Below are positions 15,668 through 47,397 of a DNA stretch of 64,000 nucleotides, piece by piece; the stretch's first letter is position 1; each line of letters begins with the position of its first letter. A model generated the notes under the pieces. That model searched no databases. It was not told the DNA's origin and saw only the letters and a list, made by a program, of their open reading frames with translations. The DNA is from Escherichia coli (GTDB lineage: Bacteria; Pseudomonadota; Gammaproteobacteria; Enterobacterales; Enterobacteriaceae): assembly GCF_003334305.1 (NCBI RefSeq), contig NZ_QOWS01000002.1; one strand, written 5' to 3'. Made by a program: the position numbers and the translations under genes.

Positions 15668-18307
15668 ATGCTGGGTAAATATAAAGCCGTTCTCGCGCTG
15701 TTATTACTGATTATTCTTGTGCCGTTGACGCTGCTGATGACGCTCGGGCTGTGGGTTCCCACGCTGGCGGGCATCTGGCTACCGCTCGGGACACGTATTG
15801 CATTAGATGAAAGCCCACGCATTACGCGTAAAGGTTTAATCATTCCCGATCTCCGTTATCTGGTGGGAGATTGTCAGCTTGCGCATATCACCAACGCCAG
15901 CCTTTCACATCCCAGCCGCTGGTTATTGAACGTCGGCATGGTAGAACTTGATTCTGCTTGTCTGGCGAAATTGCCGCAGACGGAGCAATCGCCAGCTGCT
16001 CCAAAAACCCTCGCGCAGTGGCAGTCCATGCTGCCTAACACCTGGATCAATATCGATAAACTGATTTTTTCTCCCTGGCAGGAATGGCAGGGAAAACTCT
16101 CTCTCGCATTAACCTCTGATATCCAGCAACTGCGTTATCAGGGCGAAAAAGTTAAATTTCAAGGCCAGCTGAAAGGGCAACAACTTACAGTCAGCGAACT
16201 GGATGTCGTCGCGTTTGAAAATCAGCCGCCGGTTAAACTGGTGGGGGAATTTACTATGCCGCTCGTGCCGGATGGACTTCCTGTAAGTGGGCATGCTACT
16301 GCGACGTTAAACTTGCCGCAGGAACCGTCACTGGTGGATGCAGAGCTGGACTGGCAGGAAAATAGCGGGCAATTGATTGTGCTGGCACGGGATAACGGCG
16401 ATCCGTTGCTCGATTTGCCGTGGCAAATTACTCGTCAACAATTGACCGTAAGCGATGGTCGCTGGAGCTGGCCGTATGCAGGTTTTCCTTTGAGTGGCCG
16501 ACTGGGTGTCAAAGTCGACAACTGGCAGGCAGGGCTCGAGAACGCTCTGGTCAGCGGGCGACTGAGTGTGCTGACCCAGGGGCAAGCGGGTAAAGGCAAC
16601 GCGGTGCTTAATTTTGGTCCAGGAAAATTAAGCATGGAAAAAAGTCAGATGCCACTGCAACTGACCGGTGAAGCGAAACAGGCGGACCTCATTTTATATG
16701 CCCGCTTACCCGCGCAGCTAAGTGGAAGTCTGACTGACCCAACGCTGGCCTTTGAGCCCGGCGCGTTATTACGTTCGAAGGGAAGAGTCATCGATTCGCT
16801 GGACATCGATGAAATCCGCTGGCCTTTAGCGGGTGTAAAAGTCACCCAACGTGGTGTTGACGGACGTTTGCAGGCCATTTTGCAGGCGCATGAAAATGAA
16901 CTGGGCGATTTCGTGCTGCATATGGATGGGCTGGCGAATGATTTTCTCCCTGACGCTGGCCGCTGGCAGTGGCGCTACTGGGGAAAAGGCAGTTTTACAC
17001 CGATGAATGCCACCTGGGATGTTGCAGGAAAAGGTGAGTGGCATGACAGCACGATTACGCTGACCGATCTCTCCACCGGTTTCGACCAGTTACAATACGG
17101 TACGATGACGGTAGAAAAGCCGCGATTAATTCTCGACAAGCCCGTCGTCTGGGTACGTGACGCACAGCATCCCTCCTTCAGCGGCGCGCTGTCACTGGAC
17201 GCCGGGCAAACGCTGTTCACTGGCGGCAGTGTGTTACCGCCATCAACCTTAAAATTTAGCGTCGATGGGCGCGATCCGACGTATTTCCTCTTTAAAGGCG
17301 ATTTACATGCTGGTGAGATTGGCCCGGTTCGGGTAAATGGTCGCTGGGACGGTATTCGTCTGCGCGGTAACGCCTGGTGGCCAAAACAATCACTGACTGT
17401 ATTCCAGCCGCTGGTGCCACCCGACTGGAAGATGAACTTACGCGATGGTGAACTGTATGCTCAGGTTGCATTTTCTGCTGCGCCTGAACAAGGATTCCGC
17501 GCGGGAGGACACGGCGTGTTGAAAGGCGGTAGTGCCTGGATGCCAGATAATCAGGTTAACGGTGTCGATTTTGTCCTGCCTTTCCGTTTTGCCGATGGAG
17601 CCTGGCATCTGGGGACTCGCGGCCCCGTTACGTTGCGAATTGCCGAAGTGATTAATCTGGTGACAGCGAAAAATATTACGGCTGATTTGCAAGGGCGTTA
17701 TCCGTGGACTGAAGAAGAACCCTTGCTGTTGACTGATGTTAGCGTCGATGTGTTAGGCGGTAACGTACTGATGAAACAATTACGTATGCCGCAACATGAC
17801 CCGGCGCTGTTGCGGCTGAATAATCTCTCATCCAGCGAACTGGTTAGCGCCGTCAATCCGAAACAATTCGCCATGTCCGGGGCATTTAGTGGTGCATTGC
17901 CGTTATGGCTAAACAACGAAAAATGGATAGTGAAAGATGGTTGGCTGGCAAATAGCGGGCCAATGACCTTGCGGCTGGATAAAGACACCGCAGATGCGGT
18001 GGTGAAAGACAATATGACTGCGGGTTCAGCAATTAACTGGTTGCGCTATATGGAAATTAGCCGGTCATCGACAAAAATTAACTTAGATAATCTCGGTTTA
18101 TTAACCATGCAGGCCAACATTACAGGTACCAGTCGCGTTGATGGTAAAAGCGGTACGGTAAACCTTAATTACTATCATGAAGAGAATATTTTTACGCTGT
18201 GGCGCAGTTTACGCTTTGGCGATAATCTCCAGGCATGGTTGGAGCAGAACGCACGTCTGCCGGGAAATGACTGTCCGCAAGGAAAAGAGTGTGAGGAAAA
18301 ACAATGA
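15668..18307 (+). CDS. ydbH: AsmA-like inner-membrane-anchored periplasm-spanning protein
   Basis: 879 aa; N-terminal TM helix then long beta-rich region; stop overlaps ynbE start (ATGA). Confidence 0.9.
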   Translation: MLGKYKAVLALLLLIILVPLTLLMTLGLWVPTLAGIWLPLGTRIALDESPRITRKGLIIPDLRYLVGDCQLAHITNASLSHPSRWLLNVGMVELDSACLAKLPQTEQSPAAPKTLAQWQSMLPNTWINIDKLIFSPWQEWQGKLSLALTSDIQQLRYQGEKVKFQGQLKGQQLTVSELDVVAFENQPPVKLVGEFTMPLVPDGLPVSGHATATLNLPQEPSLVDAELDWQENSGQLIVLARDNGDPLLDLPWQITRQQLTVSDGRWSWPYAGFPLSGRLGVKVDNWQAGLENALVSGRLSVLTQGQAGKGNAVLNFGPGKLSMEKSQMPLQLTGEAKQADLILYARLPAQLSGSLTDPTLAFEPGALLRSKGRVIDSLDIDEIRWPLAGVKVTQRGVDGRLQAILQAHENELGDFVLHMDGLANDFLPDAGRWQWRYWGKGSFTPMNATWDVAGKGEWHDSTITLTDLSTGFDQLQYGTMTVEKPRLILDKPVVWVRDAQHPSFSGALSLDAGQTLFTGGSVLPPSTLKFSVDGRDPTYFLFKGDLHAGEIGPVRVNGRWDGIRLRGNAWWPKQSLTVFQPLVPPDWKMNLRDGELYAQVAFSAAPEQGFRAGGHGVLKGGSAWMPDNQVNGVDFVLPFRFADGAWHLGTRGPVTLRIAEVINLVTAKNITADLQGRYPWTEEEPLLLTDVSVDVLGGNVLMKQLRMPQHDPALLRLNNLSSSELVSAVNPKQFAMSGAFSGALPLWLNNEKWIVKDGWLANSGPMTLRLDKDTADAVVKDNMTAGSAINWLRYMEISRSSTKINLDNLGLLTMQANITGTSRVDGKSGTVNLNYYHEENIFTLWRSLRFGDNLQAWLEQNARLPGNDCPQGKECEEKQ

Positions 18308-18489
18308 AAATTTTACTGGCTGCGTTGACGTCATCTTTTATGCTGGCTGCCTGTACGCCGCGTATTGAAGTCGCTGCGCCCAAGGAACCGATCACTATCA
18401 ATATGAACGTTAAAATTGAGCATGAGATCATCATCAAGGCAGACAAAGATGTCGAAGAGCTGCTTGAAACTCGTAGCGATCTTTTCTGA
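18304..18489 (+). CDS. ynbE: small lipoprotein
   Basis: 61 aa with lipobox LAAC; translationally coupled to ydbH. Confidence 0.8.
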   Translation: MKILLAALTSSFMLAACTPRIEVAAPKEPITINMNVKIEHEIIIKADKDVEELLETRSDLF

Positions 18490-18493
18490 GGCG

Positions 18494-18823
18494 ATGATGA
18501 AGAAAACATTACTTCTTTGTGCGTTTCTTGTTGGGCTGGTAAGCAGCAATGTAATGGCATTGACTCTGGATGAAGCCAGAACTCAGGGGCGGGTAGGTGA
18601 AACATTTTATGGTTATCTGGTTGCGCTGAAAACGGATGCTGAAACAGAGAAATTAGTAACCGACATTAATGCCGAACGTAAAGCGAGTTACCAACAACTG
18701 GCAAAGCAAAATAATGTGTCTGTAGATGATATCGCGAAACTCGCCGGGCAAAAGCTCGTAGCTCGGGCCAAACCGGGGGAATATGTACAAGGGATAAACG
18801 GTAAATGGGTGCGAAAATTTTAA
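18494..18823 (+). CDS. ydbL: DUF1318 periplasmic protein
   Basis: Signal peptide MMKKTLLLCAFLVGLVSSNVMA; starts 4 nt after ynbE stop. Confidence 0.8.
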   Translation: MMKKTLLLCAFLVGLVSSNVMALTLDEARTQGRVGETFYGYLVALKTDAETEKLVTDINAERKASYQQLAKQNNVSVDDIAKLAGQKLVARAKPGEYVQGINGKWVRKF

Positions 18824-18959
18824 TAGCAAAACCGCAATATCGGGATAACGCTACAGGAGAAAGCGATTGATCTATTTTCCTGAAACAAGGTGAATATTCA
18901 AAAACTCCTGTCAAATTGCCTTTCGCCCTGAAAAATGCATAGTCAAATATCTGTTTTAA

Positions 18960-18994
18960 CTAATTGGCGTTGCAGTACACACAACGCCAATTAG
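18960..18994. terminator. perfect 13-bp-stem hairpin abutting feaR stop
   Basis: CTAATTGGCGTTG-cagtacaca-CAACGCCAATTAG; no strong U-tract, so may be a stabiliser/terminator or protein site. Confidence 0.4.
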
Positions 18995-19900
18995 TTAGCG
19001 GAATTTACGTCGATACTCGCCTGGCGTCATCCCAAAGCGTTGCTTAAATACCGTTGAAAAATGACTCTGGTCAGAAAATCCCCAATGAAAGCCGATGCCT
19101 GCCAGTTTTTCATCATCTGCGGCATGGCGAATCGCATCTGCACAAAAATCGAGACGACGGTTACGAATATATTGCGCGACTACCAAACCTTTATCGGCAA
19201 ACATTCGGTACAAACTACGTACTGACATACCTGTCTCTCCGGCTATCCACTCCGGGCGTAATATCTCTTCGCGAATATTATCGTCTATCAACGTAACCAC
19301 TTTTTGAAACTGACGTTCACGACGAGGTTGAACAGATTCCCGCTGATGAAGTACCGGGCGCAGCAGACACACCATCGCCTGTAGCGCAGCTTCACTTTCT
19401 GTTTCAGAAAGTGCCGGATTATTCATGCTCTCCTGTAACAGGCGATGACTGAGTTGCACCATGGGTAAGTCAGCGTCCAGTCTTTCTGCGCAGACAGGTT
19501 TTTGATGGGGAAAATATTGTTCCAGCAGAGTGCGTGGCAAAAGTAATGAAATCTGTTTAGAAGACTCCTGCCAGTAAAGCGAACAGGGGCGTGAGGCATC
19601 GAGTAACGTAATATCGCCAGCGCCAATCTGCACCTGACGCTCATCCTGCTCCATTATTGCCTGACCACTAAGCTGAAAAACGGTGTAAAACCAGGCATCG
19701 TCGCTGCCTTTTACCTCCTGCCAGGTGCGGGATAAATTCACCCCGCTGGTTGTCACGGTACTCAGCTTTAGTCCTTTGGCAAAATGCGTGTCCAGTACAC
19801 CCGTGTAACGCTCAGTCAGCAGGCGTCCGGTAAAATTTCCGCATACCTGATTGATTTGGGAAAGCCATTGCTGAAACTCATTATCCATTGCGGGGTTCAT
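18995..19900 (-). CDS. feaR: AraC-family activator of tynA/feaB
   Basis: 301 aa; C-terminal AraC HTH (IAGETGMSVRSLYRMF...). Confidence 0.9.
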   Translation of the reverse strand: MNPAMDNEFQQWLSQINQVCGNFTGRLLTERYTGVLDTHFAKGLKLSTVTTSGVNLSRTWQEVKGSDDAWFYTVFQLSGQAIMEQDERQVQIGAGDITLLDASRPCSLYWQESSKQISLLLPRTLLEQYFPHQKPVCAERLDADLPMVQLSHRLLQESMNNPALSETESEAALQAMVCLLRPVLHQRESVQPRRERQFQKVVTLIDDNIREEILRPEWIAGETGMSVRSLYRMFADKGLVVAQYIRNRRLDFCADAIRHAADDEKLAGIGFHWGFSDQSHFSTVFKQRFGMTPGEYRRKFR

Positions 19901-21653: not shown

Positions 21654-21681
21654 AAAAAACGGCACCTGGTGCCGTTTTTTT
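21654..21681. terminator. bidirectional intrinsic terminator between feaB and tynA
   Basis: AAAAAA-CGGCA-cctgg-TGCCG-TTTTTTT. Confidence 0.6.
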
Positions 21682-47362: not shown

Positions 47363-47397
47363 AAAAAACCCGGTAAGCATTTAGCGCCGGGTTTTTT
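47363..47397 (+). terminator. intrinsic terminator after hrpA
   Basis: AACCCGG-loop-CCGGGTT followed by TTTTTATT. Confidence 0.6.

Follow-up and report, generated by a model that had tools for sequence, protein, structure and literature searches.

The junction between the convergent genes ydbL and feaR of Escherichia coli holds a long perfect palindrome. The question that it raises is whether the palindrome terminates transcription, acts in RNA as a stability element, binds a protein as DNA, or has no function in RNA at all. We examined the locus within a window of 64 kb (the whole stretch of DNA that was analysed), using gene names taken from identical or near-identical DNA in RefSeq E. coli genomes, including that of K-12 MG1655.

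The palindrome and its gene setting

The original prediction placed the sequence CTAATTGGCGTTG-cagtacaca-CAACGCCAATTAG at 18960-18994, and the sequence is present there exactly as claimed. It had been described as a perfect 13-bp stem; the stem is indeed perfect but is longer than was proposed, complementarity running 3 bp further at either side (TAA/TTA) to give arms of 16 nt (18957-18972 and 18982-18997) that are 100% complementary. The inner stem reads GGCGTTG(CA). Because the arms extend to 18957 and 18997, the feaR stop codon forms the outermost three pairs of the stem, so that the palindrome lies at the end of feaR, as had been noted, but contains the stop codon within its right arm and does not merely abut it. 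No other perfect hairpin in the 64-kb window is as long, the runners-up having 12-nt arms. Sixty shuffles of the whole window with dinucleotide composition preserved gave longest arms of 9-13 nt, none reaching 14 nt; the palindrome is far beyond chance.

Table 1. Features of the ydbL/feaR junction and haplotypes of the hairpin, in window coordinates.
Feature	Position	Strand	Description
ydbL, last gene of ydbH-ynbE-ydbL	18497..18823	+	open reading frame and RefSeq annotation
ydbL 3' UTR	18824-18997	+	hairpin at its end
Spacer, ydbL stop to hairpin	18824..18956		apparently E. coli-specific
Left arm	18957..18972		TAACTAATTGGCGTTG; AT-rich over the outer 9 nt, GC-rich over the inner 7 nt
Variable stem position	18966		G/C/A; partner 18988 is C/G/T
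Loop, 9 nt	18973..18981		CAGTACACA
Right arm	18982..18997		CAACGCCAATTAGTTA; final 3 bases are the feaR stop codon
feaR stop codon TAA	18995..18997	-	base-paired at the stem foot in the feaR transcript
feaR CDS, 301 aa	18995..19900	-	open reading frame and RefSeq annotation of identical DNA
Antisense-feaR stretch	18998..19250	+	transcription stopped by Rho in K-12; RNA with C > G
Haplotype H1 (K-12 type)	18980-18981		TG adds two pairs, giving 18-bp arms and 5-nt loop GTACA; 40 contigs
Haplotype H2 (this window)	18980-18981		TG>CA, giving 16-bp arms; 38 contigs
Haplotype H3	18966/18988		C-G; 25 contigs
Haplotype H4	18966/18988		G·G mismatch; 14/120 contigs
Haplotype H5	18966/18988		A-T; 3 contigs

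The two genes converge, and the hairpin sits at the junction of both 3' ends. RefSeq annotation assigns ydbH-ynbE-ydbL to putative intermembrane phospholipid transport. We found no promoter-like site in the spacer (18824-18956), and a small ORF or sRNA there was rejected, its TTG start at 18867 being TTA in the other E. coli rows of the alignment except W5-6. The ydbL 3' UTR also contains a 7-nt inverted repeat, ACAGGAG...CTCCTGT (18853-18859 and 18905-18911), the pairing of which is not conserved because positions 18905 and 18906 are polymorphic. Taken as a whole, the ydbL 3' UTR folds with a z-score of -5.1, largely owing to the terminal hairpin.

Known elements were sought at the junction. 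An Rfam scan of 18300-19500 (E <= 10) returned only far-sub-threshold eukaryotic miRNA and snoRNA noise, the best matches being to eukaryotic miRNA models (21 bits against a gathering score of 97 bits, E = 0.28). As a candidate Tus-binding Ter site, GTTTTAACTAA at 18953-18963 matches the core GTTGTAACTAA at 10 of 11 positions, which is chance level: the window holds two Ter-core matches against 0.67 expected, and 18 of 100 shuffles reach two. The bases upstream of 18953-18963 also differ from the Ter consensus, with its conserved upstream G6. A sigma-54-like TGGC..TTGCA in the arm was likewise discarded, since on inspection the spacing is wrong for the consensus. On the K-12 chromosome the ydbL/feaR locus belongs to the terminus half.

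Folding, intrinsic termination and Rho

The stability of the stem was borne out by predicted RNA folding of the 41-mer, which gave -21.3 kcal/mol on the + strand (z-score -7.5) and -23.4 kcal/mol on the - strand (z-score -7.0). Considered together, the window and K-12 forms have predicted energies of -21 to -28 kcal/mol on either strand, the z-scores ranging from -7 to -9. The corresponding single-stranded DNA hairpin is predicted at -16.1 kcal/mol in the window and -20 kcal/mol in K-12.

A stable stem-loop with a GC core, lying where two transcription units have their 3' ends, would be expected of a canonical Rho-independent terminator for one or both genes. It had been predicted, on the other hand, that the palindrome lacks a U-tract on either strand and is not a typical intrinsic terminator, and both statements hold. 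The 8 nt past the full stem contain two T on the + strand (GCGGAATT) and one T on the - strand (AAACAGAT). The stem was also shortened one pair at a time, so that its AT-rich outer part (AAUUAGUUA) took the place of the tail; any trimmed register yields at most 4 T in 8, and A-A adjoins the GC core. We then scored each register with a formula of the d'Aubenton-Carafa type, for which only the comparison between hairpins carries weight. The score is negative in every register of the ydbL/feaR hairpin (best -27.7), compared with +17 to +27 on both strands for the canonical hairpins at 21654-21680 and 47363-47397. A consensus terminator scan did not call the ydbL/feaR hairpin. The sole call of that scan at the locus, 19000-18985 on the - strand (6 pairs with G-T), was set aside; it competes with the main stem and falls under the shuffle expectation.

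The hairpin at 21654-21680, a perfect 12-bp-arm structure (AAAAAACGGCAC-CTG-GTGCCGTTTTTT) located 19 nt past the feaB stop codon, scores positively on either strand and is a bidirectional intrinsic terminator of the textbook kind. The ydbL/feaR hairpin resembles such terminators in its GC-rich inner stem and in the extension of its helix by AT-rich flanks, but these flanks are of mixed A/T composition (TAACTAATT / AATTAGTTA) and are not an A-run paired with a T-run. Two further perfect hairpins of the window have A-run/T-run flanks: AAAAAACCCGG...CCGGGTTTTTT at 47363-47397, which scores as a bidirectional terminator, and ACAAAAGGGAAA...TTTCCCTTTTGT at 35468-35497.

Direct information on transcription past the hairpin comes from K-12, where the hairpin occupies NC_000913.3 1446340-1446380 (window coordinate + 1,427,383). 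For the + strand, antisense to feaR, Adams et al. 2021 (PMC7815308, Suppl. file 2) report a Rho region that scores highest at 1446501, with a Rho score of 4.03 and p = 1.3e-5. This position corresponds to 19118 of the window, 121 nt past the hairpin. Bicyclomycin changed the coverage upstream/downstream of 1446501 from 54/14 to 87/91 (PMC7815308), the call being based on 800-nt windows and low read counts from growth in LB, and pertaining to K-12 (the 18-bp haplotype) and to the + strand only. Rho thus terminates + strand transcription shortly beyond the hairpin in K-12. Because read-through is complete when Rho is inhibited, the hairpin alone does not terminate the + strand in LB, which agrees with the prediction that this is not a typical intrinsic terminator. 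A canonical Rho-independent terminator is contradicted for the + strand by this read-through and is at odds with the missing U-tract, and we give that explanation almost no credence.

The curated Term-seq list of Adams et al. (PMC7815308) contains no 3' end in 14460xx-14464xx, which at so weakly expressed a locus is uninformative, and no entry naming ydbH, ydbL or feaB; the absence from this list is probably due to low expression. TERMITe likewise holds no entry for the ydbL/feaR locus. Downstream of the hairpin, + strand RNA has a C/G ratio of 1.06-2.08 over 0-320 nt, and on the - strand the ratio exceeds 1 only from about 40 nt onward, C>G being a mild and non-specific criterion.

Another explanation is that the palindrome serves as a non-canonical bidirectional terminator or pause site, at which the nascent hairpin would pause RNA polymerase and convergent collisions would be fixed between the genes, or as a weak intrinsic terminator backed by Rho. 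Collision-driven bidirectional termination is said to have been described by Ju and colleagues in 2019. According to a preprint by Wang et al. 2022, the bidirectional terminators of convergent genes are unlike intrinsic ones, and a stem-loop is needed to position the collisions; U-poor hairpins may also be inefficient intrinsic terminators aided by Rho (Dar & Sorek 2018, PMC6061677). The ydbL/feaR locus shares with the collision class its convergent gene pair, placed symmetrically about a hairpin that forms on both strands exactly between them, and an appearance that is not intrinsic-looking. Its GC-rich inner stem with complementary AT-rich outer arms could furthermore be read as the layout of a terminator with degenerate A/U tracts, but the A-A next to the GC core and the negative scores of all registers argue against this. 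The collision class is stated to be Rho-independent and to work best at highly expressed pairs, whereas here + strand read-through is Rho-sensitive and both genes are expressed weakly, with low coverage and no signal from feaR. Bicyclomycin abolishes the + strand drop, and the coverage of 87/91 leaves no detectable Rho-independent stop, under LB conditions in which feaR is probably silent and collisions are not expected. Termination or pausing of this kind is therefore an unlikely role for the palindrome.

Distribution and variation of the hairpin

Of 5,426 complete E. coli genomes, 4,690 match a 237-nt query spanning the junction, each at one locus, and 4,185 of these cover the query in full. 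With a 71-nt query centred on the hairpin, at least 80% of the length is covered in 4,193 complete E. coli genomes, all with an identity of at least 90%; that this query returns "two places" per genome we infer to reflect the palindrome matching itself on both strands. The hairpin is single-copy, with one locus per E. coli genome. A repeat family, MITE or mobile-element end was rejected as a candidate, the plasmid and phage collections giving only the same chromosomal locus in mislabelled records. Like REP/BIME elements, which are known to stabilize upstream mRNA against 3' exonucleases, the palindrome is intergenic and hairpin-forming; it differs from them in having one locus per genome, no REP sequence and no Rfam family.

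Conservation across the Enterobacteriaceae had been suggested as a check and did not materialize: a FeaR-based scan of species-representative genomes yielded just four informative loci outside E. coli proper, and the hairpin is in none of the four. The stop codons of feaR and ydbL abut in Pseudocitrobacter faecalis, P. vendiensis and a Pluralibacter MAG, with neither spacer nor hairpin; the abutting stops (TGA, then TTA or TCA) are at L009:3404-3409, L010:3404-3409 and L011:3407-3412 of these Pseudocitrobacter/Pluralibacter loci. The fourth locus, from a divergent Escherichia, has an unrelated spacer of about 75 nt after a TGA stop of feaR and lacks the hairpin. Judged by these comparisons, the 171-nt spacer with its hairpin is specific to the E. 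coli lineage. The Pseudocitrobacter/Pluralibacter junctions without a hairpin also indicate that the hairpin is dispensable for ydbL and feaR.

The divergent Escherichia locus (L008:3404-3806) comes from NZ_JAATUR010000011.1, which is labelled E. coli SCPM-O-B-8794. Its YdbL is 75% identical to that of the window and the flanking YdbH and FeaR are 96% identical, a difference which suggests a recombinational exchange of the ydbL-spacer segment in one of the lineages. Two E. coli genomes are broken within the spacer. In SCZE5 (L006; window-equivalent approximately 18938) the spacer carries an IS1A some 20 nt short of the hairpin position, with a ynbC fragment behind it. CREC7837 (L007; window-equivalent approximately 18887) keeps similarity for 64 nt of spacer, beyond which comes a BigA/YdbA-type gene. 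As read from these two assemblies, the spacer is a rearrangement point.

Variation within E. coli was determined from 120 metagenome contigs that were anchored on the flanks, not on the hairpin. Exactly five hairpin haplotypes were found, with no indels (Table 1), and complete genomes show the same pair states as the contigs. The adjacent double substitution TG>CA at 18980-18981 is confined to the lineage of the window, compared with all other haplotypes; it removes two loop-proximal pairs, shortening the stem from 18 bp to 16 bp at a cost of approximately 6 kcal/mol on the + strand. For every haplotype the predicted folding energy nevertheless lies between -20 and -28 kcal/mol on either strand. 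Within the arms only the pair 18966/18988 varies.

Variable sites are fewer in the arms (2/31) than in the adjoining spacer (30/118; Fisher p = 0.026), but the difference is not significant when singletons are removed (2/31 versus 20/118, p = 0.17). A covariation analysis of the five haplotypes detected one pair changed on both sides, with three Watson-Crick types, and the shuffle control for this analysis was not significant, 52 of 500 shuffles reaching the score with five haplotypes. Few events lie behind the haplotypes, because the flanking SNPs show that these largely follow lineages. These data are suggestive of maintained pairing and fall short of proof of selection.

Haplotypes H3 and H5 are found mostly where feaR is truncated by a fea-paa deletion. 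In E. coli EC17GD31 and R4 (L004, L005), for instance, feaR is cut to its last 70-85 codons or so and fused to paaX/paaY remnants; the truncation (window-equivalent approximately 19200-19250) arose via a tynA-feaB-paa deletion, and the hairpin is kept with C-G or A-T at the variable pair. Where the stem persists beside such a truncated feaR pseudogene, only the ydbL-side transcript can use it. An intact hairpin in these lineages is consistent with use by the ydbL transcript.

The pattern of variation bears upon the other alternative raised in the original prediction, that of a protein-binding palindrome, by which we understand an operator for a dimeric DNA-binding protein at the ydbL/feaR junction. 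Dyad symmetry is the sole feature that favors an operator. Against it, perfect arms of 16-18 bp far exceed typical half-sites, and position 10 of the arm switches identity (G, C, A) symmetrically while complementarity is kept. There is furthermore a single copy per genome with no related site elsewhere, the location is at 3' ends and not at a promoter, and the orthologous junctions of other genera lack the hairpin. The proposal of protein binding consequently fares badly on the length of the arms, the changing identity of the variable pair and the absence of the element from other genera, and we regard it as highly improbable.

More weight attaches to the possibility that the palindrome has no RNA function, being lineage-specific spacer DNA the perfection of which is kept by intrastrand template switching (quasipalindrome correction). 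Non-coding K-12 DNA has an approximately 150-fold excess of perfect inverted repeats with arms of at least 13 nt, and such repeats are conserved as perfect, which has been attributed to preferential template-switch correction (Lavi et al. 2018, PMC5941160); quasipalindrome template-switch mutagenesis has also been documented in E. coli by the Lovett laboratory. The ydbL/feaR palindrome resembles these repeats in being a long, perfect, non-coding inverted repeat for which mismatched and re-perfected haplotypes coexist, whereas theirs reflect a mutational process, not a function. Several observations fit such a process: as single-stranded DNA the palindrome is predicted to form a stable hairpin (-16 kcal/mol in the window, -20 kcal/mol in K-12), all arm variation falls at one pair for which the G·G mismatch intermediate is observed, the hairpin is absent from other genera, and the evidence for selective constraint is weak. 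Template-switch correction would give the same haplotype pattern as selection on RNA structure, so the compensatory changes could equally have arisen at the DNA level. Template switching accounts, however, for the maintenance of the palindrome and not for its position at a convergent junction beside a Rho region, protective stem-loops being expected beside Rho termination regions on the basis of Dar & Sorek 2018 (PMC6061677). The identity of at least 90% that is kept over 71 nt in all 4,193 complete genomes carrying the region also speaks against spacer DNA without a function. Template switching is moreover compatible with an RNA function and not exclusive of it. In its strict form, with no function in RNA, we consider the explanation decidedly unlikely.

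We also considered a more elaborate scenario, in which the palindrome is an insulator, specific to E. coli and of recent acquisition, that is under selection and repairs itself as well. It would have come with the recombined ydbL-spacer segment, given feaR its TAA stop, fixed a pause or collision point separating both units, and been kept perfect by template-switch conversion. Such conversion would explain the repeated re-pairing (G-C, C-G, A-T) at one pair. This scenario we judge very unlikely.

The hairpin as a proposed 3' end of two converging transcripts

The explanation that we favor, with somewhat better than even confidence, is that the palindrome is a stable stem-loop without U residues behind it that sets and protects the 3' ends of both converging, Rho-terminated transcripts. 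The existence of protective 3' stem-loops on Rho-dependent transcripts is a hypothesis that Peters and colleagues reportedly advanced in 2012. The palindrome would encode a stem-loop on both strands, one in the ydbH-ynbE-ydbL transcript (+) and one in the feaR transcript (-). RNA polymerase would pass the hairpin, enter the antisense of the facing gene and there be released by Rho. PNPase and RNase II would next shorten the tail as far as the foot of the stem, where the stem would block them, and the outcome would be an mRNA with a defined 3' end. Under this model the feaR 3' UTR would be essentially the 41-nt hairpin, beginning at the stop codon. The downstream release by Rho corresponds to the + strand termination observed in K-12; trimming to the hairpin, protection from exonucleases and every step on the feaR strand are proposed by extension from the described class of such stem-loops. 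Among the observations that speak against this explanation are the frequent occurrence of a haplotype with a G·G mismatch in the stem (14/120) and the fact that in Pseudocitrobacter and Pluralibacter both genes do without the hairpin.

That class was defined by Dar & Sorek 2018 (PMC6061677), who found that Rho-dependent transcripts of E. coli end directly after stable stem-loops without U-rich tails. The stem-loops are energetically like terminator hairpins and have mild C>G downstream, and the 3' ends come from PNPase/RNase II trimming of a longer primary transcript (PMC6061677). The ydbL/feaR palindrome is likewise a stable, terminator-sized stem-loop with no U-rich tail, followed on the + strand by Rho termination within a few hundred nt and by downstream C>G; it has every sequence-level property of the Dar & Sorek class, together with a downstream Rho region. 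It differs from the class in its unusually long and perfect stem (16-18 bp), in its overlap with a stop codon and in that two converging units would share it. Of the two alternatives put forward in the original prediction, the RNA stability element is the one that fits best, its support being indirect and coming from the Rho region and from features of the sequence. On this best explanation, which we hold to be rather more probable than not, the element is an unannotated, E. coli-specific case of a class already described.

For annotation, these results mean that the hairpin should not carry an intrinsic-terminator label. The locus could also provide a natural test case, comprising five stem haplotypes (perfect at 18, 17 and 16 bp, and one with a mismatch) and sister taxa without the element, and the haplotype series could separate selection on RNA structure from the DNA-level upkeep of palindromes by template switching. 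If our favored explanation is true, the stakes are small: the palindrome would be one more U-less stem-loop giving Rho-terminated E. coli mRNAs exonuclease-resistant 3' ends, with the particular feature that a single palindrome would serve two converging units.
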